Notes: generated from the sequence alone by a model not told the origin. A stretch of 32,470 bases of DNA from a virus (IMGVR_UViG_3300048904_000202:132007-164476); one strand, 5' to 3'. Shown: positions 1,357 through 17,421, counted from the stretch's first letter. Numbers and translations: made by a program.

Positions 1357-1436
1357 TTAACTATCTTTCTCGTGGACTCGTGCTGGACTATCCCCTAGAC
1401 CGTGATTGCGCCGATTCGCGGCGCGGGAGACACAAC
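1357..1436 (+). promoter_or_regulatory. Early cassette promoter-leader A
   Basis: TTAA 1357, CTCGTGGA 1369, TGGACT-N17-TAGACC (1373/1396), hairpin GCGCCG-ATTCG-CGGCGC from 1408, SD GGGAGAC. Confidence 0.75.
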
Positions 1437-1805
1437 ATGCAAGTTTTCAAACGCCTTTCCGCCGCACTCAAAGCCGCAGGTGACGGCCCTTATCTCCGTA
1501 TCGGAACCGGTAACGATAAGCTCTACATCGTCGGTATCGAAAGCCATACCGGAATTGAGCTTGTCAGCGAAGTGAAGCCTCCCAAAGGCTCGCAAACAAC
1601 CGGCTCGCGCCTCATTTCCGGGCAAGTTCTTCTCGGACATCTCGACCGGCTGGGTAACGCCAACAGCGCGGCGGCCGCTCGCCTGAATCGGGAACCTACG
1701 TTCCGTCAAGCTGGTCTGTCGCAAAACTTCATGCGCGAAGCTGACCGCGAAGATTACGAGACCATGTGCCAAGCCGAAAAAGCGAAACAGGCGGAGATCG
1801 CGTAA
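1437..1805 (+). CDS. Hypothetical early protein, 122 aa (MQVFKRL…)
   Basis: ATG behind conserved GGGAGAC SD; start re-called from the track ORF 1314..1805. Confidence 0.8.
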   Translation: MQVFKRLSAALKAAGDGPYLRIGTGNDKLYIVGIESHTGIELVSEVKPPKGSQTTGSRLISGQVLLGHLDRLGNANSAAAARLNREPTFRQAGLSQNFMREADREDYETMCQAEKAKQAEIA

Positions 1806-2056
1806 TGTACGTCATCCGTCACAGCATCACCGGCAACGCCATATCGTCGCATCTATTCGAGATGACCGCAAAAGACCTTCGCGAGGCGCAAGCGTCCGAT
1901 ACGTACGATATCGAGGCGAACACGGGCGACGGCGTGTTTCACGAACACGTCACCGCCGAACGCGCACACCGCCATGTCAAACAGGGCCGCATACATTCAA
2001 CGCCGCTCTATATCGACGATCGCGGACGCATCCGCTACGCGCGGGACGGTTACTGA
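1805..2056 (+). CDS. Hypothetical early protein, 83 aa
   Basis: TAATG stop-start overlap with the upstream gene. Confidence 0.75.
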   Translation: MYVIRHSITGNAISSHLFEMTAKDLREAQASDTYDIEANTGDGVFHEHVTAERAHRHVKQGRIHSTPLYIDDRGRIRYARDGY

Positions 2057-2286
2057 TGCAGCGCGTAGAGATCGCACGGGGCGGCGGATTCGCCCTTATC
2101 AGCATCGGTAACGGGTGGGCCTATGAACTGGGCTGCAACGGCGCCAGTGGGACAATTTTCGTCCAAGGTGACGACGCAACCCAGTTTCGCGAGGAATGGG
2201 ACGCGCTGGAGCAAGCGAAGCCAGACACCCACACAACCGCGCTACTGCGCGAGATGTGGGACCGATATGCGGAGATCGCTAGTTGA
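2056..2286 (+). CDS. Hypothetical early protein, 76 aa
   Basis: TGATG overlap; FVQGDDA motif. Confidence 0.75.
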   Translation: MQRVEIARGGGFALISIGNGWAYELGCNGASGTIFVQGDDATQFREEWDALEQAKPDTHTTALLREMWDRYAEIAS

Positions 2287-2354
2287 TTGGCGCGATCGGG
2301 CGACTCATCTGTGGGCTGTTCCTGATACTCATCGCGGGCGCCTTCATTCTCTAA
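2283..2354 (+). CDS. 23-aa hydrophobic microprotein MIGAIGRLICGLFLILIAGAFIL
   Basis: TTG start overlapping upstream TGA, GGAG at 2271, ends just before terminator; paralog at 6423-6494. Confidence 0.65.
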   Translation: MIGAIGRLICGLFLILIAGAFIL

Positions 2355-2357
2355 CCC

Positions 2358-2383
2358 GGCGGGCCACGGCCCGCCTTTTCTTT
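2358..2383 (+). terminator. Intrinsic terminator
   Basis: GGCGGGC-CACG-GCCCGCC then TTTTCTTT. Confidence 0.85.
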
Positions 2384-2399
2384 ACCCGGTAACCGGTCG

Positions 2400-2518
2400 T
2401 TAACCTTAACAAAATCGCCTCAGTCCATTAACCATCTAACTCGTGGGCCATTGTTGACTCCTGCTGGCGATTCAGCGTAGATAACTCCTACACCGATTCG
2501 CGGTGTGGGAGACACGAC
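2400..2518 (+). promoter_or_regulatory. Early cassette promoter-leader B
   Basis: GTTAACCTTAAC, TTAACCAT 2428, CTCGTGG 2440, TTGACT-N18-TAGATA, 9-bp hairpin with ATTCG loop, GGGAGAC. Confidence 0.8.
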
Positions 2519-2659
2519 ATGCAAGTAACTGTTACCATCCCGGCGAGCGTACAGGCCGCCAAAATCGCGGCACGCGCCGCGCCGACCATGGCGGAAGCCG
2601 CTCGCATCTACTGCGACGCTCTGCGTAGCGCTAAGCTGCCTCTCCCGGTGATCCGGTGA
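2519..2659 (+). CDS. Hypothetical early microprotein, 46 aa (MQVTVTIPAS…)
   Basis: ATG directly behind conserved SD; below the ORF-track size cutoff. Confidence 0.75.
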   Translation: MQVTVTIPASVQAAKIAARAAPTMAEAARIYCDALRSAKLPLPVIR

Positions 2660-2733
2660 AGGCCCGCGCTCGCAAGCGGGCGGACCGCATCGCGGCGCTC
2701 TCGCGCTGGATCATGAAGGGACGGAAGGGCTAA
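2656..2733 (+). CDS. 25-aa Arg/Lys-rich peptide MKARARKRADRIAALSRWIMKGRKG
   Basis: GTGA overlap; fills the gap exactly up to the next gene's RBS. Confidence 0.5.
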   Translation: MKARARKRADRIAALSRWIMKGRKG

Positions 2734-2736
2734 GCC

Positions 2737-3207
2737 ATGACCACCAAAAAAGCTCAAAAGGCCGCTGAAATCGCGGAAGCGATAGAATCGCTGCGCAAGC
2801 TGATCAAGCCGGGCGACACGATTTATTGCGTCCTGCGGTCGCGCTCCTCGTCGGGCATGTCGCGGGTTATCGACCTGCTTATTCCCTATCGGGAAGTCAT
2901 TACCGAATATCCGCCACTCCCGGCCGATAAGGCGGAATATCCGGGACAACGCGATTACAACGCAAAGCCCAAAACCAAAGCGGGCAAGCTCCGTATTCGC
3001 TCGATCGGCTGGACCGCTTCGAAAGCTATGGAGCGGACTCACGACTCGGATAAGGGAGGTATTTCCATCGCTGGTTGTGGGATGGATATGGGCTTTGCCC
3101 TCGTTTACGATCTGGGGCGTACGCTTTACCCGAAGGGCGCGAAGGGAAGCGCCCTCAGGGAAGGACAGAAAGACGGCGGGTACGCTTTCAAACACGAATG
3201 GCTTTGA
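2737..3207 (+). CDS. Hypothetical phage protein, 156 aa (KPGDTIYCVLR…SGMSR; GCGMDMGFALVY motifs)
   Basis: Clean ORF, purine-rich RBS, followed by terminator. Confidence 0.85.
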   Translation: MTTKKAQKAAEIAEAIESLRKLIKPGDTIYCVLRSRSSSGMSRVIDLLIPYREVITEYPPLPADKAEYPGQRDYNAKPKTKAGKLRIRSIGWTASKAMERTHDSDKGGISIAGCGMDMGFALVYDLGRTLYPKGAKGSALREGQKDGGYAFKHEWL

Positions 3208-3210
3208 CTG

Positions 3211-3237
3211 GGAGGGCTACGGCCCTCCTTTTCTTTT
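3211..3237 (+). terminator. Intrinsic terminator
   Basis: GGAGGGC-TACG-GCCCTCC then TTTTCTTTT. Confidence 0.9.
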
Positions 3238-3252
3238 GCGCAGAACTCTTCG

Positions 3253-3361
3253 TTAAGGTTAACCGCCGGCCGGAAACCGTTAACCGTCTATCTCGTGGAA
3301 TATTGCTTGACCCGACTCGTGGACTCGGTCTAGACCCTGATTCGCAATTGGGAGACGCAAC
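3253..3361 (+). promoter_or_regulatory. Early cassette promoter-leader C
   Basis: TTAA at 3253/3259/3280, CTCGTGGA 3292 and 3317, TTGACC-N18-TAGACC, TG-ATTCG-CA, GGGAGAC. Confidence 0.75.
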
Positions 3362-3523
3362 ATGTGCCTGACAGTGAAAAAGTCCCGCGACGGTAAGACC
3401 ATCATGGTTTCTCGCAACGGACGGTTTGACGTGTCGCAGCGTGACGGGCGCGGCGACTGGGTTCGCAAGCTCGAACAGGTTTCGCTTGGCGAAGCCGAGT
3501 CGTTCATGCGTTTGCATCCGTAA
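3362..3523 (+). CDS. Hypothetical early protein, 53 aa (MCLTVKKSRDG…), paralog of 4254-4457
   Basis: ATG behind conserved SD; sequence similarity to 4254-4457. Confidence 0.75.
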   Translation: MCLTVKKSRDGKTIMVSRNGRFDVSQRDGRGDWVRKLEQVSLGEAESFMRLHP

Positions 3524-3534
3524 GGGGAGGGGCC

Positions 3535-3690
3535 GTGTTGTTCGCTACTCGCACCAAGCTGGCTTGGTTTACCGTCGTGACGACGTTGCGGACGTTCCGC
3601 CTCGAAGCGGCGGACCTCGCGACCGCGACCGAAACCGCGTCGCATATCATCATTTCCTGTATCGAAACCGTAGTGGAGGTAAAACCATGA
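3535..3690 (+). CDS. Hypothetical protein, ~51 aa (GTG 3535 or TTG 3538)
   Basis: GGGGAGG RBS at 3524-3530; ATGA overlap with the next gene. Confidence 0.6.
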   Translation: MLFATRTKLAWFTVVTTLRTFRLEAADLATATETASHIIISCIETVVEVKP

Positions 3691-3884
3691 TCCAGATCAT
3701 TGAGTCCAACATGTCGCGCCGCACCGTCATCGCGACCGCGCCCGATTTCGCCGCTGCCAAAGCGAAGGTTGAGGCGATGGGTGTCGCCTACATGGAGGAT
3801 GACGCCGATCACGCCGATTGCGCTGACGCCTACACAAATGACGGGCGCGTCATCGCGATTCAGCCCGAAGGGTTCAAGCTGTGA
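3687..3884 (+). CDS. Hypothetical protein, 65 aa (MIQIIESN…)
   Basis: GGAGG RBS, ATGA overlap. Confidence 0.75.
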   Translation: MIQIIESNMSRRTVIATAPDFAAAKAKVEAMGVAYMEDDADHADCADAYTNDGRVIAIQPEGFKL

Positions 3885-4093
3885 AGCTGGAGCCCGTAAC
3901 CGTTCGCCTAGAATTAGATCGGGCAAGCCTTAATCGCTATCTAGGCAACGTCGAAAGCGTGCCTTTAGAGACGGCCGTAGCGGAGCTTTTGGGCAATCTG
4001 CTAGGTGAGTTGCCTTTCTATTGCGAGCGTTGCGGGACGGCGCATCAAGAGGATACCGGAATCAAAGGACGGTTTGAGATCATGGAAAGCTAG
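3881..4093 (+). CDS. Hypothetical protein, 70 aa, with CxxC (CERC)
   Basis: GTGA overlap; ends at terminator. Confidence 0.7.
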   Translation: MKLEPVTVRLELDRASLNRYLGNVESVPLETAVAELLGNLLGELPFYCERCGTAHQEDTGIKGRFEIMES

Positions 4094-4118
4094 GAGGTCC
4101 GCAAGGCCCTTCCTTTTT
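4093..4118 (+). terminator. Intrinsic terminator
   Basis: GGTCC-GCAA-GGCCC stem with extension, then TTTTT. Confidence 0.7.
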
Positions 4119-4133
4119 GGCGGTAACTGGAGG

Positions 4134-4253
4134 TTAACCTTAACGAACGGCCGCGAATCGTTAACCATCTAACTCGTGGACTCAGTGTTGACTCGTGGAC
4201 TCGACTCGGGCATTAAGGTGCTACGCCGAGTCGTGGCGTATGGGAGACACGCA
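4134..4253 (+). promoter_or_regulatory. Early cassette promoter-leader D
   Basis: TTAA 4134/4140/4161, CTCGTGGA twice, TTGACT 4188, six GANTC sites, hairpin TACGCCG-AGTCG-TGGCGTA, GGGAGAC. Confidence 0.8.
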
Positions 4254-4457
4254 ATGAATACCGTTCGCAAGAGCCCCGATGGAAACATCATGATCGTACA
4301 GCGTCCTAGCGGCTATGCCGTCTCGACCCGTGCGCCGCACTGGAACCCCGGAGATTCCATTCGCATCATCGGCGTGCAAACGCTGGAATGGGCAACGGTC
4401 GCAAAAGGCTTGGACCTCAGCGCCGCAACCGCCATGTTTGACAAGCTGGCAGCCTAA
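4254..4457 (+). CDS. Hypothetical early protein, 67 aa (MNTVRKSPDG…), paralog of 3362-3523
   Basis: ATG behind conserved SD; start re-called. Confidence 0.8.
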   Translation: MNTVRKSPDGNIMIVQRPSGYAVSTRAPHWNPGDSIRIIGVQTLEWATVAKGLDLSAATAMFDKLAA

Positions 4458-4469
4458 GGAGTCCTAACA

Positions 4470-5027
4470 ATGCCTGAGTTCATCGCGGATACAGACGGGA
4501 CCGTAAATGGCATGTCGTTTGACGACCTGTCAGACATTTTTCAGGGCTACGTTGAAGCCATGCTTTTCACCGAAACTTGCAGCGGTATCAGCATGGTCGA
4601 TTGGAACGACCCGAAAAACGTCGAGGATGTCGAGGAAGGGCGCGCCGATGGAAGCATCCCGACCGACGCCGGATGGGGCGACATTCATCCCAACTCGGCG
4701 GAGCGCATGCAACTCGATTGCTTCAATTTCGAGGTTGAAGCTCGCGACCTGTTGGCGCAAGCCTATCGCCATACCTTTCCAGCCCGCACGATCGGCGACG
4801 GGACGTTGCCTGATAGTCACCGCGAAGCATGGGACTATGACGCGAAAGCGGCCGGCCGCGACTTTTGGTACACCCGCAATGGTCACGGTGTCGGTTTCTG
4901 GGATCGTGGACTCGGCGACATTGGCGACAAGCTAGCGGAGATTGCCCGCAAATATGGAACGGTAAACGTGTCGTTCGGCCCGGATGAAAGCTCACCGACC
5001 GGTTACGGATACGTCTACGCGGAATGA
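4470..5027 (+). CDS. Hypothetical phage protein, 185 aa, acidic, DFWYTRNGHGVGFWDR motif
   Basis: AAGGAG RBS, clean ORF, terminator after. Confidence 0.85.
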   Translation: MPEFIADTDGTVNGMSFDDLSDIFQGYVEAMLFTETCSGISMVDWNDPKNVEDVEEGRADGSIPTDAGWGDIHPNSAERMQLDCFNFEVEARDLLAQAYRHTFPARTIGDGTLPDSHREAWDYDAKAAGRDFWYTRNGHGVGFWDRGLGDIGDKLAEIARKYGTVNVSFGPDESSPTGYGYVYAE

Positions 5028-5033
5028 AGGGGA

Positions 5034-5062
5034 GGGGCTGGGCAACCGGTCCCTTTCTCTTT
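5034..5062 (+). terminator. Intrinsic terminator
   Basis: GGGGCTGG-GCAA-CCGGTCCC then TTTCTCTTT. Confidence 0.75.
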
Positions 5063-5077
5063 GCTGGTATGCACTCA

Positions 5078-5206
5078 TTAACGTTAACGAACGTGTCCGA
5101 TCTGTTAACCAAACAAAAAGAGGTCTAACTCGTGGACTCATGTTGACTCAGCACGTGGACTCGTCCATCACTTTCCTACGGCGACTCGCGCCGTGGGAGA
5201 CACAAA
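5078..5206 (+). promoter_or_regulatory. Early cassette promoter-leader E
   Basis: TTAA 5078/5084/5105, CTCGTGGA 5129, TTGACT 5143, 9-bp hairpin with ACTCG loop, GGGAGAC. Confidence 0.8.
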
Positions 5207-5332
5207 ATGCGTATTACTTTCGAGGTGAAACCGGGTAACAAGCTGGGCAAGCGGATCGACCGCGCCGACAAGCGCGACCGTCGCGAGCAGCGCCGGGCGA
5301 AGGAAGCCCGCCAGCGTTTCTTTCACGCCTAA
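5207..5332 (+). CDS. 41-aa arginine-rich peptide MRITFEVKPGNKLGKRIDRADKRDRREQRRAKEARQRFFHA
   Basis: ATG behind conserved SD; stop abuts the next RBS. Confidence 0.75.
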   Translation: MRITFEVKPGNKLGKRIDRADKRDRREQRRAKEARQRFFHA

Positions 5333-5345
5333 GGAGGGCGACACA

Positions 5346-5831
5346 ATGGAAGCTCAGTTCCGCAATATCGACATCAAGGGACCGCAGCGCGTCAAGTTCC
5401 AGTGGCGTCGCGAAACGCCACGCGATGAAACGTCCGACCGTCCAGACGAACGCGATGATGGTTTCTGGCCGTCGCTCAACCCGGAAGAAGCCGGCTATAT
5501 CGGCGACGCCGAGCCGTCCGACGTTGATGGCGCTGCACAGCAAGCCCGCTACGACTCTGCGCTGGCAGCCGCTGAAAAGCGTATGGAAGCATGGGAAAAT
5601 GACGAATGGGAGTTCGTCGGTGTCGTCGCCGTCGCGGAAGTCGCTATCCCTATTGGTGGTGGGTCCTACGCCCTCCACACGTTCCGCTCGCCGGGCGTTT
5701 GGGGCGTGGAAAGCGATGCGGGAGATTATCTTGACACGCTCTATGTAGAGCAAAAGGCCGAGTTGCTTGCACAACTCCGCACGCTGGGCGCGGCGCTTGG
5801 TCAACCCGCCGACTTCGACGAGGAAGGCTGA
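5346..5831 (+). CDS. Hypothetical phage protein, 161 aa, acidic (EWEFVGVV…GVWGVESD)
   Basis: AAGGAGG RBS, terminator after. Confidence 0.85.
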   Translation: MEAQFRNIDIKGPQRVKFQWRRETPRDETSDRPDERDDGFWPSLNPEEAGYIGDAEPSDVDGAAQQARYDSALAAAEKRMEAWENDEWEFVGVVAVAEVAIPIGGGSYALHTFRSPGVWGVESDAGDYLDTLYVEQKAELLAQLRTLGAALGQPADFDEEG

Positions 5832-5838
5832 AAGGCGA

Positions 5839-5862
5839 GGGGGCGGGGAAACCCGCCCCTTT
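5839..5862 (+). terminator. Intrinsic terminator
   Basis: GGGGCGGG-GAAA-CCCGCCCC-TTT. Confidence 0.8.
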
Positions 5863-5867
5863 CGTGG

Positions 5868-6006
5868 TTAACGATAAAGGCCTACAGGTTAACCTTAACA
5901 AACCGACCTAAATCATTAACCATCTGACTCGTGGAATTATGTTGACCCGACTCGCGGACTTCGCCTAGACAGGTATTGTACCGATTCGCGGTGCGGGAGA
6001 CACGAA
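5868..6006 (+). promoter_or_regulatory. Early cassette promoter-leader F
   Basis: TTAA 5868/5889/5895/5916, CTCGTGGA 5928, TTGACC-N18-TAGACA, hairpin TGTACCG-ATTCG-CGGTGCG, GGGAGAC. Confidence 0.8.
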
Positions 6007-6426
6007 ATGCATAACGCCAAAATTCAACCGGCTTGGGCTCAATTCATCAAGCGCGACCAAACGGAAAACCGCGTCGCGTTCGTCGCCGCGCTCCTGATGG
6101 AACGCGTTCCACTGGCGCAATCTAAGCGAGCGATCGAGAAAGGGGATGATTTCAAGCTTAGGTCGCATATCGCCGAGGGCTTCGCCGTCGAGTTGTCGCG
6201 GCTTGCGCGCGCCATTAAGCGCCACGCTGAGAATGCGTGCAATCGCGAAGTGTCGGAAGCCGAGGAAGCGCGCGACGCCAAGAATCAGGCCCGTTTCGCT
6301 GCGATTGCCTCAGCGCTTGGTTTCGAGGCCCGCACCGGCGGCGATCCTCGTGGCGCGTGCGCCTACTTGATCGATCCAGATGACCGGAAGGGGGATGGCT
6401 GGGGCGAAGGCTGGGCGGTCTATTGA
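6007..6426 (+). CDS. Hypothetical early protein, 139 aa (GGDPRG motif)
   Basis: ATG behind conserved SD. Confidence 0.85.
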   Translation: MHNAKIQPAWAQFIKRDQTENRVAFVAALLMERVPLAQSKRAIEKGDDFKLRSHIAEGFAVELSRLARAIKRHAENACNREVSEAEEARDAKNQARFAAIASALGFEARTGGDPRGACAYLIDPDDRKGDGWGEGWAVY

Positions 6427-6494
6427 TATCCGCCCTAGCGCGCCTTTTCGGCGGACTTTTCCTAATCCTACTGGCTAGCGCCTTTCTGCACTGA
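6423..6494 (+). CDS. 23-aa hydrophobic microprotein MISALARLFGGLFLILLASAFLH
   Basis: TTGA overlap; 14/23 identical to 2283-2354; precedes a hairpin. Confidence 0.65.
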   Translation: MISALARLFGGLFLILLASAFLH

Positions 6495-6504
6495 GCCCAA
6501 ATCT

Positions 6505-6532
6505 AGGCCGGCGCCAACGCGCCGGCCTTTCT
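6505..6532 (+). terminator. Probable intrinsic terminator
   Basis: AGGCCGGCGC-CAAC-GCGCCGGCCT then TTCT. Confidence 0.7.
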
Positions 6533-6623
6533 ATGTGCCTGCCACATGGGTTAACACAGCACCATGAACTATTAACCAGATTTGTTCGTAGACTGGTAAG
6601 GTGACAAGCCATAAACTGGGCGC

Positions 6624-6800
6624 ATGGAAACGACGACTCACCACATAACAGCGGCCTTGCGGGACAAGCGCATTGCGCAGATCATGAAAAGAGAAGGCTT
6701 CGACTATCTCGGCGCTTACCGCCGCGATCAAGCAAGGCAGGCTGTCAACGCCACGCTACGCGCTGCGCCACGTTGTGCCTCAATCAACATGTGCAAATGA
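6624..6800 (+). CDS. Hypothetical protein, 58 aa (METTTHH…), probably leaderless
   Basis: No SD, but TAGACT-N17-TAAACT (6589/6612) places the start site at about the ATG. Confidence 0.5.
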   Translation: METTTHHITAALRDKRIAQIMKREGFDYLGAYRRDQARQAVNATLRAAPRCASINMCK

Positions 6801-6807
6801 CGTGCTA

Positions 6808-6889
6808 CTCGTGGAAGATACGTGGAATATGACTTGACCGAATCGATACGACTCGTCTATAAACGAATCACTGATTAGGGAGACACGAC
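6808..6889 (+). promoter_or_regulatory. Early cassette promoter-leader G (divergent copy)
   Basis: CTCGTGGA 6808, TTGACC-N18-TATAAA, three GANTC, GGGAGACACGACATG. Confidence 0.75.
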
Positions 6890-7183
6890 ATGACCAACGC
6901 AATGCCCGCTTTCACTGTCCTAGTTAACAAGCTGGCTATCGGTCGCGTTAGCGCTGTATCGCACGCACAAGCGATGACCCGTGCCCGCGCCCTTGCCCGC
7001 GCCGCTGGCCACGCCCGGTTCGAGATCGAGGCGGAAGGCAACGTCACCCTTGACCGCGCCGCACGCACCAATTTCAGCCGCTCCGATACGTCCTATAGCG
7101 CGGGCCGCGCCCCCTACGCCACGCCGGGCTTTGAAGAGCGCCGCGCTGCTATGATAGCAGCCTATAAGGCGGGCGCGCTCTAA
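6890..7183 (+). CDS. Hypothetical early protein, 97 aa, Ala/Arg-rich
   Basis: ATG behind conserved SD; strong terminator after. Confidence 0.8.
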   Translation: MTNAMPAFTVLVNKLAIGRVSAVSHAQAMTRARALARAAGHARFEIEAEGNVTLDRAARTNFSRSDTSYSAGRAPYATPGFEERRAAMIAAYKAGAL

Positions 7184-7204
7184 GCCACACACCCGACGCC
7201 ACAC

Positions 7205-7240
7205 AGCGCCGCCTAGCAGCCCAGCTAGGCGGCGCTTTTT
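7205..7240 (+). terminator. Strong intrinsic terminator closing the early array
   Basis: 13-bp perfect stem AGCGCCGCCTAGC/GCTAGGCGGCGCT plus T run. Confidence 0.9.
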
Positions 7241-7538
7241 CGTGCCCGTGTTCATTAAGGTAAACGATTCGTTAACTATAACGACACGATCGCGCTTAGC
7301 GACGCGTTAGGATTGTGCGTCGCTAACCTCACCGCGCGGCGCGACAGTATCACCAAAATTCGCTTGGCAGGCGCGTCCTAGGGAGAGCCTAGGGGACCCA
7401 AAGGGGTATACCCTCCGTTAACCAAACCGGCCCTCTAGGCGCGCGCCTAATGTAATAGAGGTCGGAATTTCAGAACTCTGCCGAGTCAAGTTTCGCTCGA
7501 CTTTTCCGTCCGATGGTGTTAGTATCTCTGTCCATGGT

Positions 7539-7849
7539 CATCACGGCCATCCCATCACTCGCAAAGGGACCCACGGGGGACCCATCCCGCACATCACGGA
7601 CAAATCGAACCCCGTCAATTTTGTACACCCATATCGACAAATTCAGAACTGTGATCCTCGCAAGCGGATCGCAGTTTTCTCACCCACAGGGTGAGGAGAA
7701 CTCTACCCGGCCGTCGAATTGGCATCACGGCGAAATGAGTAGGGGACCCATCGACGGTACGTCATCACGGCAGACTTCGAATGGGTCCCATTGGCGGTAT
7801 CACATCACGGCCAGAGGATAGAGGTCTCCTCGGCAGTATCACATCACCG
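7539..7849. repeat. CATCACGG direct repeats, the last four with ~40-bp period, interleaved with GGGACCC
   Basis: CATCACGG at 7539, 7592, 7723, 7763, 7803; CATCACCG at 7842; GGGACCC at 7566, 7577, 7743 and reverse at 7783. Confidence 0.75.
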
Positions 7850-7940
7850 CGAGTGATGAGCGATCGAACCGTCAGGCTTGTCCAGCTTGATACCCTTCAT
7901 CGCAGCGACCGGCCGAGCCGGCGCAATCACGGAGTCTCCC

Positions 7941-8690
7941 GTGTCCAAGCCCAAGCAGAAGTTCTTCCCCACCGAACCGCAGCACAAGGAAGCCCAGCAG
8001 GCCGTCCTAAAGCTGCCCACCGAGGAAATCCCGCTCAAGCCGCGTAACGCGACCCAGCGCTTCTATTTCCGCTCCTGCCAGAACATCAACTACCCCTACG
8101 TCATCGGCCACGGTCCGGCCGGCGGCGGTAAGACCCACGGGCCAGTGATTGCGGCGATCAACGCTCTCCGTGCCGGAGAGATTCAGAAGATCATCATCAC
8201 GCGCCCGATGGTCGGCGCCGGTGGTGAGGACTTGGGCACGCTTCCGGGCGGCGTCGTCGAGAAAGTGGCACCGTGGTGCATCCCGATCCTCGACATCCTC
8301 AAGGAGCATTACACCCCTGCACAGGTCGCGTCGCTGATCGAGCGGGAGATCATCGAGATCGCGCCACTCGCGCTGATGCGTGGCCGCACCCTCAAGAACG
8401 CCTACATCATCGTGGACGAAGCGCAGAACACGACACCCGAGCAGATGGAAATGATGCTCACCCGGCTCGGCGAGGGCAGTCGCATGTTCATCACCGGCGA
8501 CGAGAAGCAGCACGATCGCGAATATGCGCTGCCGGGTCTGGTCGACCTGCTGCGCCGCCTCGAACGCTATCCGAACGACGATTTCGCCATCCACGGCTTC
8601 CGCAAGTCGGATTGCGTTCGTCACCCGGCGATCCAGAACGTGTTGAACATGTATGCGGGCGAACCGGTCGGCATGGCGGTGGCGGCATGA
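7941..8690 (+). CDS. phoH: PhoH-family ATPase
   Basis: Walker A GPAGGGKT, IIITRP, RGRTL, DEAQN, GDEKQHD; GTG start behind GGAG at 7931. Confidence 0.95.
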   Translation: MSKPKQKFFPTEPQHKEAQQAVLKLPTEEIPLKPRNATQRFYFRSCQNINYPYVIGHGPAGGGKTHGPVIAAINALRAGEIQKIIITRPMVGAGGEDLGTLPGGVVEKVAPWCIPILDILKEHYTPAQVASLIEREIIEIAPLALMRGRTLKNAYIIVDEAQNTTPEQMEMMLTRLGEGSRMFITGDEKQHDREYALPGLVDLLRRLERYPNDDFAIHGFRKSDCVRHPAIQNVLNMYAGEPVGMAVAA

Positions 8691-9115
8691 CCGGAGAGCT
8701 TCGACATAGCCAAGCGAGCCAGCAGGGCGAGCTTCCTGTCATTCACGCGACCGTCATGACGCAAGGGGAGGGCGGCCACCCGGCCGCCTTCCTTCGCGCC
8801 GGCTGCCAACTGACGACTGAGGCGCCGCCATCCCGGCCAAAGGATAAGCTGGCGATCGTCTGTGCCAGCATGGACCACGCGGACAAAGTTGCCCGTCAAT
8901 ACGGGATCACCAACGCCCAGCGCAGGAATGAGGATGTCATGATCCTCGTGCCCGGACAGGCCGTCGTGGGCCACCGCTTCCACACCGTCCTCGTGACGGA
9001 CTGGTTCAACTTTCACCAGAAACATGCTGGCGAGAGCCGCCGCGCCTCCTTGCAGGAGTGGATCGAGGTAGACCTTCGCATCCGCGTCGGTACCGGAAAG
9101 ATCATCTACCTGTGA
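8687..9115 (+). CDS. Hypothetical protein, 142 aa
   Basis: ATGA overlap with phoH. Confidence 0.65.
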   Translation: MTGELRHSQASQQGELPVIHATVMTQGEGGHPAAFLRAGCQLTTEAPPSRPKDKLAIVCASMDHADKVARQYGITNAQRRNEDVMILVPGQAVVGHRFHTVLVTDWFNFHQKHAGESRRASLQEWIEVDLRIRVGTGKIIYL

Positions 9116-9393
9116 GCGTCAAGACCTGCATCATCGCCGAGCATGACATTGCCTGCCAGCAGCTTCGCCGAGAACTCGCGATCGGACCGGCCGGTGCATC
9201 ACTCGTCCACGCCAACCCTTACTTCCACGTCCTGACGCCGGGCGAGATGCCGTGTGCCGTCATGTACGATGAGGTGATAATCTTCGAGAGCGTGGACGAG
9301 AAGATTGCAACCTGCCCGCGCCACGAGGACTGGTTCGAGACTTGCATCCGCACCCGGATGACGCGAGACGCCCAGATCGTGATCGTCAAATGA
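9112..9393 (+). CDS. Hypothetical protein, 93 aa
   Basis: GTGA overlap; resembles the C-terminal half of the preceding ORF in layout. Confidence 0.65.
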   Translation: MSVKTCIIAEHDIACQQLRRELAIGPAGASLVHANPYFHVLTPGEMPCAVMYDEVIIFESVDEKIATCPRHEDWFETCIRTRMTRDAQIVIVK

Positions 9394-9605
9394 ACGATCC
9401 TTGCCGCATCGTGGAGATCAAGGAAGTCTCGGCTAAGTGCTGTCCGTTCTGCGGCCGACAAGACATCCGCACGTTGCGGACCAAGGAAAACATGTGGGCT
9501 ACGATCTGCTACCCGTTCGAGGACGGTTGCGGTGCCCGCACCGATTACCATTTCAGTGCTTGGTCATCACGCGCCGCGTGGGACCGCCGGGTGGACCCTA
9601 CTTGA
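9390..9605 (+). CDS. Lar-family (restriction alleviation-like) zinc-binding protein, 71 aa
   Basis: CPFCG … C … GCGA … AAWDRR pattern typical of the Lar family; ATGA overlap. Confidence 0.65.
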   Translation: MNDPCRIVEIKEVSAKCCPFCGRQDIRTLRTKENMWATICYPFEDGCGARTDYHFSAWSSRAAWDRRVDPT

Positions 9606-12090: not shown

Positions 12091-12136
12091 TTAAGGTTAA
12101 TTTTCCCTTGACTTCCACGAGATGGTCCAGTATGAT
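12091..12136 (+). promoter_or_regulatory. Strong sigma70-type promoter with TTAA-N7-TTGAC overlapping the -35
   Basis: TTGACT 12108, N17, TATGAT 12131; TTAAGGTTAA upstream; TCCACGAG (reverse CTCGTGGA) in the spacer. Confidence 0.85.
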
Positions 12137-17392: not shown

Positions 17393-17421
17393 TTGACAAT
17401 CTACCCACTTTCGTTTACCAT
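17393..17421 (+). promoter_or_regulatory. Sigma70-type promoter for the tail tube gene
   Basis: TTGACA-N17-TACCAT; second TTGACA at 17348. Confidence 0.6.

Follow-up and report, generated by a model that had tools for sequence, protein, structure and literature searches.

GcrA and CcrM form the textbook epigenetic cell-cycle module of the Alphaproteobacteria, and to our knowledge phages have so far been tied to this module only through phage-borne gcrA or ccrM homologues. A phage promoter that depends on host adenine methylation is known from phage Mu, where mom relies on the host Dam methylase (GATC sites, OxyR). In the alphaproteobacterial system GcrA is bound to sigma-70 region 2 before it binds the promoter, possesses a flexible linker and acts as a monomer (PMC5887438, PMC9976885). 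Its top motif is TGATTCG (PMC4647560), with a broader preference for YGAKTCK/G (PMC4647560, PMC5887438), and GcrA-box centres have been reported at -30±2, at -20±1 in the spacer, or at +5 to +30 (PMC9976885, PMC5887438). Among Alphaproteobacteria this module is conserved except in lineages such as the Rickettsiales (PMC3885167), and a prophage-like operon of Brevundimonas is GcrA-dependent (PMC7987155). Here we describe seven early promoter-leaders (L1 to L7) of a large phage, located in a window of 32,470 nucleotides of its genome, which are densely occupied by GANTC, the CcrM target sequence. The placement of these sites suggests that phage expression is tied to the epigenetic cell-cycle system of the host.

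The window corresponds to genome positions 132007-164476, the last 32.5 kb of a 164,476-bp phage record in IMG/VR (IMGVR_UViG_3300048904_000202; complete according to CheckV; 60% G+C). Positions below are those of the window unless genome coordinates are named. At the amino-acid level the portal protein is 68% identical to that of Erythrobacter phage XM05, 66% to that of Sphingobium phage Lacusarx, 65% to that of Erythrobacter phage vB_EliS-L02 (L02) and 58% to that of Citromicrobium phage RXM, with DSS3P8-type roseophages (~45%) and the Caulobacter phiCbK group (37%) more distant. Because the nearest cultured relatives, judged by the portal, infect Erythrobacter, Sphingobium and Citromicrobium, the host of this phage is most likely a member of the Sphingomonadales.

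The seven leaders contained 24 GANTC sites (2, 3, 3, 6, 4, 3 and 3 in L1 to L7). Each leader had at least one match to YGAKTCG on either strand, 13 in total, including those at 1412, 4227, 5182 and 6839; the 24 sites, the per-leader counts and these four matches had been given correctly in an earlier sequence-only reading of this DNA. The resulting density was 29.7 sites per kb in 808 bp of leaders versus 2.66 per kb in the genome, and 2.1 sites would be expected in the leaders at the genome frequency. When each leader was subjected to 2000 dinucleotide-preserving shuffles, 4.4±1.9 sites were obtained, with a maximum of 11. GANTC ranked first of 256 gapped 5-mers (XYNZW) for enrichment in the leaders (11.6-fold), followed by TTNAC, which covers the -35 element and the GTTAAC boxes. 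The two 2-kb bins richest in GANTC within the 164-kb genome together spanned window positions ~1995-5994.

Over the genome as a whole, none of the 16 palindromic XYNY'X' patterns was as depleted as GANTC, which had an observed/expected ratio of 0.45 under a first-order and 0.82 under a third-order Markov model. The whole window held 105 copies versus 186±13 in shuffles. Depletion genome-wide together with enrichment in the leaders indicates that the motif is generally avoided and gathered in control regions. CcrM sites in alphaproteobacterial genomes have been described as depleted in genes and concentrated in control regions (quoted in PMC8067484). A split into coding and non-coding DNA (2.3 versus 4.2 sites per kb) is approximate and was not relied on, the crude GC3-based gene caller having mis-called the early region; some other GANTC clusters in the genome were tRNA T-arms. 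All of these simple statistics overstate independence, and the 24 sites are not 24 independent events, because all seven leaders derive from a single cassette as paralogues. Positions, heptamer context and conservation across diverged phages are stronger arguments than the raw count.

The early cassettes, which we refer to as class I, share a common order (Table 1): the terminator of the preceding unit (four were called among the cassettes), paired GTTAAC boxes, a CTCGTGGA box, TTGAC, the spacer, a -10 element, a short 5' untranslated region (UTR), GGGAGACAC and the ATG. The spacer is 18 bp long (17 in L1) and the -10 element is of the CTANA type (TAGACC, TAGATA, TATAAA and similar). Positions relative to the start are numbered with the T of TTGAC as -35; this numbering rests on predicted -35 and -10 elements and may be off by 1-2 nt. 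At the sequence level the promoters are RpoD-type, with TTGAC, 17-18 bp and CTANA in six of the seven class I promoters (GTGGAC in L1) and also in the class II promoters described below. The Caulobacter RpoD consensus is TTGaCgS/GCtANAWC (PMC8144410).

Within this framework the GANTC sites recur at a few places. All seven leaders have one on or just after the -35 element (-31 in L1, L2, L4 and L5; -26/-27 in L3, L6 and L7), and five have one before the -10 element (-17/-18 in L2, L3, L4, L5 and L7, with an extra site at -23 in L4). Downstream of the -10 element, sites are found at -1/-2 in L3 and L7 and at +8/+9 in the other five leaders (L1, L2, L4, L5 and L6). A few upstream sites lie inside the CGTGGA-CTC box. 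L7 is the leader closest to the promoter type of XM05 and L02.

Table 1. Early promoter-leaders, 5'-UTR hairpins and late-type comparators in the window, with GANTC positions (predicted distance to the start in brackets)
Feature	Position	Strand	Elements	GANTC sites
L1	1357-1436	+	CTCGTGGA box; -35-like TGGACT 1373; -10 TAGACC 1396-1401; hairpin 1406-1426; ribosome-binding site GGGAGACAC 1425; ATG 1437	1375 (overlaps -35); 1413 (hairpin loop, CGATTCG)
L2	2400-2518	+	GTTAAC boxes; TTGACT 2454; 18-bp spacer; TAGATA 2478-2483; hairpin 2485-2511; ATG 2519	2456 (centre ~-31); 2469 (-18); 2495 (+9, hairpin loop)
L3	3245-3361	+	TTGACC 3307; -10 TAGACC; without strong hairpin; ATG 3362	3314 (-26, CGACTCG); 3322 (-18); 3339 (~-1, TGATTCG, top strand)
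L4	4125-4253	+	TTGACT 4188; -10 CATTAA; hairpin 4221-4241; ATG 4254	4155; 4179; 4190 (-31); 4198 (-23); 4203 (-18); 4228 (+8, hairpin loop, CGAGTCG)
L5	5075-5206	+	TTGACT 5143; hairpin 5172-5200; ATG 5207	5135 (-41); 5145 (-31); 5158 (-18); 5183 (+8, hairpin loop, CGACTCG)
L6	5865-6006	+	TTGACC 5942; -10 TAGACA; hairpin 5976-5996; ATG 6007	5926 (-49); 5949 (-26, CGACTCG); 5983 (+9, hairpin loop); degenerate GACTT at -18
L7	6801-6889	+	TTGACC 6834; -10 TATAAA; ATG 6890	6840 (-27, CGAATCG); 6850 (-17, CGACTCG); 6865 (~-2, CGAATCA)
Hairpin, five copies	1406-1426; 2488-2508; 4221-4241; 5176-5196; 5976-5996	+	8-bp stem, loop A-N-U-C-G	
Late-type comparator	12108-12136	+	CCCTTGACT, 17 bp, TATGAT; upstream of scaffold/capsid genes	
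Late-type comparator	17393-17421	+	CCCTTGACA, 17 bp, TACCAT; upstream of 608-aa structural gene	

GANTC-bearing promoters were not limited to the early block. A second common cassette, class II, was found in ~13 minus-strand promoters at genome 79-118 kb and consists of CTTGAC, 17 bp containing AAGATTYGTCC, TA(G/C)AC, GANTC, ~10 nt, ACGAATC(A) and GGGAGACAC. Its predicted elements place GANTC centres at -19 (6 of 13), -5 (9 of 13) and +10 to +12 (11 of 13). The genes behind these promoters mostly belong to unknown families, with one Nudix protein among them, and the class II leader, searched for in IMG/VR as an exact motif, gave no match. The downstream arms of the class II leader could pair as RNA; their central bases were T/A in four copies, G/A in two, T/C in one and C/A in one. 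These arms do not covary and therefore behave as two separate GANTC sites rather than as a maintained RNA helix. Isolated promoters with GANTC clusters were present at genome 14.4, 46.8, 50.3, 62.6, 106.7, 109.3, 112.5 and 127.2 kb. The sequence-only reading was right to place GANTC in the early promoters; the feature is not specific to that class, since the leftward class II promoters carry the motif as well.

A third, late-type class ahead of structural genes combines YYCCCTTGAC (CCCTTGAC) with 17 bp and TATGAT or TACCAT. No GANTC was present between the -35 and the -10 element of the late-type promoter at 12108-12136, and none in the one at 17393-17421.

The heptamer context of the promoter sites leans towards that preferred by GcrA. 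YGAKTCG was matched by 31 of 50 promoter GANTC sites (62%; 13 of 24 in class I, 18 of 26 in class II) versus 79 of 388 elsewhere (20%), an odds ratio of 6.4 with a Fisher p of 4e-9 for copies that are not independent. Most promoter sites had the form CGANTCG or CGAATCA, and the latter, which occurred most often in class II, matches TGATTCG exactly when read on the opposite strand. In the predicted numbering, reported GcrA-box positions were occupied in class I at -31 (four promoters), -26/-27 (three), -17/-18 (five) and +8/+9 (five), and in class II at -19 (six) and +10 to +12 (eleven). That sites differ in position and number between promoters fits GcrA, which reaches its boxes through a flexible linker and acts as a monomer.

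The same arrangement was found in related phages. XM05 has ~28 small early genes, nearly all of them preceded by CTTGACC-GAATC-GGTGGAG..CCTAGAAAC-GAATC-A..GGAGACAG..ATG. In its aligned promoters GANTC occurred at -27 in 20 of 20 and near -3 in 18 of 20, columns conserved like TTGAC, and its density was 12.7 per kb in early-block intergenic DNA versus 1.8 per kb in the structural block. L02 has ~30 promoters with CTTGAC-GAATC-A (-28) and AAAC-GAATC-A (-3), some with a third site at -18. In Lacusarx, TTGAC-GAATC-A (-28) is joined by another site at -17/-18 in which the central base varies (GACTC, GAGTC, GAATC). Three IMG/VR lineages with portals 62-71% identical displayed the same pattern, with 5-7 GANTC per kb upstream of the portal gene versus ~2 per kb downstream, and the more distant roseophage DSS3P8 had a single CGAATC(A/G) at ~-28 or -19 in several early promoters. 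CGAATCA and CGAATCG, the dominant heptamers in the relatives, both fit YGAKTCG.

In phiCbK, the terminal-repeat early promoters (GGTAACCTTTTGTTAAC..CTAGGGT) contained no GANTC, and the first 50 kb showed no positional peak of the motif. Sequence comparison thus indicates that the GANTC-promoter trait has been kept among phages of Sphingomonadales, and in part among those of Rhodobacterales, although the remaining promoter sequence has drifted. Being present in the sphingomonad-phage clade and absent from the phiCbK early promoters, the trait does not simply come with any G+C-rich phage promoter in Alphaproteobacteria. GANTC promoters as a general property of CbK-like phages were ruled out on the same grounds. 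The L02 genome paper mentions neither GcrA nor methylation, and none of the papers covered by our literature searches described GANTC-rich phage promoters.

Which proteins might read these sites was addressed by searching the phage itself. The sequence-only reading had pointed to the GcrA homologues of phiCbK-like phages and to a possible gcrA gene elsewhere in this genome. A six-frame PF07750 search of the genome returned no candidate, and a custom hidden Markov model (HMM) built from 110 alphaproteobacterial GcrA sequences found no GcrA among all six-frame open reading frames (best E 0.18). The appeal to phiCbK was therefore misleading: this phage lacks gcrA by both Pfam and the custom HMM, and GANTC is missing from the phiCbK early promoters that were inspected. 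Searches of the entire phage in six frames likewise gave no match to DNA methyltransferases (PF01555, PF02086, PF00145), to Sigma70_r2 or to MucR, and annotation of the early proteins with Pfam and PHROGs for a regulator yielded families of unknown function only. With no methyltransferase, GcrA or sigma-70-family gene found in the phage, reading of the earliest-firing promoters must fall to host proteins.

On the host side, GANTC is the most abundant N6-methyladenine motif in Sphingomonas sp. AAP5, in which CcrM methylation of GANTC has been demonstrated (PMC8067484). We detected GcrA in 101 of 151 sampled alphaproteobacterial genomes (a sample without taxon labels that includes one unpublished genome, G034). 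A scan of genome contigs with a GcrA motif pattern gave 120 loci, mostly from named alphaproteobacteria, with no named sphingomonad among them.

We consider there to be an even chance that the GANTC sites are GcrA boxes read by host RNA polymerase-sigma-70-GcrA on CcrM-methylated DNA. This is the CcrM-GcrA switch proposed by the sequence-only reading, and it survives in part: RpoD-type promoters, sites mostly at GcrA-box positions, the YGAKTCG bias, conservation and the negative searches for a phage reader gene speak for it, while its early specificity and the phiCbK link have fallen away and the sites at -5 to -1 do not fit. We infer the use of these promoters by host RNA polymerase-sigma-70, GANTC methylation of the phage DNA, GcrA binding and the timer effect described below. 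The sites would be functional parts of host-type (RpoD/sigma-70) phage promoters. Host CcrM would methylate the promoter GANTC, and GcrA, carried on sigma-70 region 2, would bind the methylated boxes and help RNA polymerase to find and open the promoters. With two to six boxes each, the class I (early) and class II (middle) promoters would gain in the competition for host polymerase, and how active they are would vary with template methylation and with the cell-cycle stage of the host.

This mechanism could also provide a timer. Methylated parental DNA would recruit GcrA-RNA polymerase, the early and middle promoters would become inactive on unmethylated progeny DNA, and the GANTC-free late promoters would take over. 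Dilution of methylation by replication would be the mechanism, and such an early-off timer fits the absence of GANTC from the two late-type promoters; we purely infer it, and regard it as improbable. A wider version would hold that a clade of large lytic siphophages of Alphaproteobacteria lacking methyltransferase and GcrA (Lacusarx, XM05, L02 and this phage, partly also DSS3P8-like phages) has wired its whole early and middle programme to host CcrM and GcrA, with a methylation-dilution clock and cell-cycle sensing. In this full form the proposal seems unlikely.

Several observations weigh against GcrA as the reader. Sites at -5 (class II), at -1 to -3 (L3, L7, XM05 and L02) and at -23 lie outside the published GcrA windows, and those from -5 to -1 could just as well serve as a discriminator or start-site element, as an A follows CGAATC at the predicted +1. 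Eleven of the 24 class I sites do not match YGAKTCG; most of these are TTGACTC and GTGGACTC, they sit within longer motifs (the -35 hexamer and the CGTGGA box), and the counterparts of the CGTGGA box in XM05 (GGTGGAG) and L02 (CTTGGAC) have no GANTC. The five 5'-UTR sites double as the loop of a covarying hairpin, which places them under a second, independent RNA constraint. GcrA-activated promoters of Caulobacter mostly have one box, while the phage promoters have two to six. The paralogy of the promoters means that p-values overstate independence. A strict E. coli-type promoter scan detected none of these promoters, because their -35 and -10 elements fit the Caulobacter RpoD consensus and not the strict E. 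coli hexamers. Finally, Caulobacter CcrM is unstable and restricted to late S phase. A fast-replicating 164-kb phage without its own methyltransferase may for these reasons be packaged largely unmethylated.

The explanation that survives best beside GcrA boxes, though we think it rather unlikely, is that GANTC is incidental to a duplicated promoter cassette and has no link to methylation. RNA polymerase and sigma would read an extended -35 element (TTGAC-C-GAATC), the spacer and a discriminator/start element (CGAATC-A, with A as +1). All copies are paralogous, several class I sites arise merely because TC comes after TTGAC or GTGGAC, and the -3/-5 group sits where discriminator and start-site sequence matters in any promoter. 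The central base of the XM05 and L02 sites is fixed (GAATC) and conserved like TTGAC, but at the -18 site of Lacusarx and in the hairpin loops it varies while G, A, T and C stay fixed. Incidental occurrence would also leave unexplained why the same 5-mer, often within the same heptamer, appears in either orientation at three or four places within one promoter, why no palindrome is avoided more than GANTC in the rest of the genome, and why it is lacking from the late-type and phiCbK promoters.

It is unlikely that another protein, whether from the phage (injected or made early) or a different host factor than GcrA, reads CGAATC(A/G) or CGANTCG as an activator or as a shut-off repressor. The heptamer is short, conserved and repeated like operator half-sites, the cassettes hold further conserved boxes without a known reader (the GTTAAC pairs, CTCGTGGA and the class II AAGATTYGTCC), and most early proteins belong to no known family. 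Against such a reader, the first-firing promoters have to work with host proteins only, and the motif persists in phages of two host orders with differing early gene sets. The exact match to the GcrA heptamer would have to be a coincidence.

The hairpin in five of the leaders forms in RNA, where the mRNA is predicted to begin, as its stem covaries and contains G-U pairs. In the five aligned copies 97.5% of cells were paired, three of the eight pairs were altered on both sides and several were G-U. The loop-closing pair uses the G of GANTC, and in the loop the central N varies while G, A, T and C are fixed. In L2 (2485-2511) and L5 (5172-5200) the stem extends to pair with GGGAG of the ribosome-binding site (~-20 kcal/mol, z ~-5), so translation of the first genes behind these two leaders may need opening of the hairpin. 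Promoters of the N4 hairpin type were ruled out by the strong ribosome-binding site directly after the hairpin, the TTGAC/-10 pair upstream and the G-U pairs. That the transcribed sites act as RNA, with a hairpin that stabilizes the mRNA, binds a protein or controls translation and with GANTC as the DNA image of its loop, is very unlikely to explain the motif, because it accounts for 5 of 24 sites only, leaves the untranscribed spacer sites and those of L3, L7, XM05 and L02, which have a site without a hairpin, aside, gains nothing from the non-covarying class II arms and is compatible with GcrA boxes rather than exclusive of them.

The early region carries further repeated elements. An array of eight AAGGTTAACGA-like repeats at 1179-1340 lies just before the first cassette, and a pair of GTTAAC boxes (GTTAACCTTAAC, then RTTAACCATCT) precedes each early promoter ~40-90 bp upstream of the -35 element (for example at 2399-2435, 3258-3285, 4133-4166, 5083-5110 and 5867-5920). 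XM05, L02 and Lacusarx also have these GTTAAC boxes, including ATGGTTAACAAATT, and a modified form (GGTAACCTTTTGTTAAC) is found in early promoters of phiCbK. By sequence inspection, CtrA boxes (TTAA-N7-TTAA) were ruled out for the GTTAAC elements of this phage, the spacings being unfit. The early promoters of phiCbK (2300-9500) share GTAA-N7-TTAAC followed by CTAGGGT, one mismatch from the CtrA box TTAA-N7-TTAAC; such a near-CtrA box would suit a phage with swarmer cells as its target.

At ~995-1130, immediately upstream of the array of GTTAAC boxes, there are four iteron-like direct repeats of ~34 bp, GCGAACAGCG-N5-6-CCATTTTGGC. GGGGACCC motifs occur at 170-260 and 7380-7400 and are similar to GGGGACCC units that recur at the phiCbK left end (1-1000); the record may be circularly permuted, in which case the genome would physically end close to where the window starts. 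Two similar hydrophobic frames of 23 codons (LIGAIGRLICGLFLILIAGAFIL and LISALARLFGGLFLILLASAFLH, at 2284-2355 and 6424-6495) end two of the cassettes before their terminators, and a comparable small hydrophobic frame is found in intergenic DNA of XM05. Between the early block and phoH lies a 620-bp non-coding stretch (7256-7877) with CATCACGGC-like repeats and GGGGACCC/GGGTCCC motifs, which may be an origin or packaging region. XM05 has a similar region of 650 bp before phoH, with a dense run of GANTC at its start.

If the sites are indeed GcrA boxes, GANTC in the promoters of lytic phages would represent a new way for a virus to read the physiological state of its host, and could give a simple replication-coupled switch from early to late expression. 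Each phage would then offer a natural set of ~20 to 60 strong promoters that vary in box position, number and heptamer, which would help in studying the positional action of GcrA. The idea is directly testable, because cultures of XM05, L02 and Lacusarx and of their hosts exist.

Among known systems, Mu mom resembles the promoters described here as a phage promoter tied to host adenine methylation of short palindromes. It differs in its methylase and motif, in working through the blocking of a repressor, and in serving a single late gene instead of whole early and middle classes. The GcrA-dependent operon of Brevundimonas subvibrioides, which spans 26 genes, likewise places phage-type genes under host GcrA (PMC7987155). 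In contrast to the present phage it is a single operon of a resident and apparently non-functional prophage, known from transcriptomics, and no GANTC-rich promoter array has been described for it. The GcrA/CcrM promoters of Caulobacter crescentus (csM, mipZ, ctrA P1; Haakonsen 2015, PMC4647560; Wu 2018, PMC5887438; Wu 2023, PMC9976885) are alike in being RpoD-type, with GANTC in the -35/-10 spacer or just past the start, in the heptamer YGAKTCG/TGATTCG and in a motif that is scarce in genes and concentrated in control regions. Unlike them, the phage set belongs to a lytic phage of a sphingomonad-type host and includes the extra -5 to -1 class, and its dependence on methylation and GcrA is predicted only. 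The phiCbK-like phages of Caulobacter (Gill 2012, PMC3556154) are distant relatives that share with this phage a large siphophage form, a similar early layout of small genes and GTTAAC-type boxes, and they too have a connection to the GcrA system. However, phiCbK encodes its own GcrA and its inspected early promoters are without GANTC, whereas this phage has no gcrA and its promoters are full of GANTC; it appears that one host module is exploited by the two phages in opposite manner.

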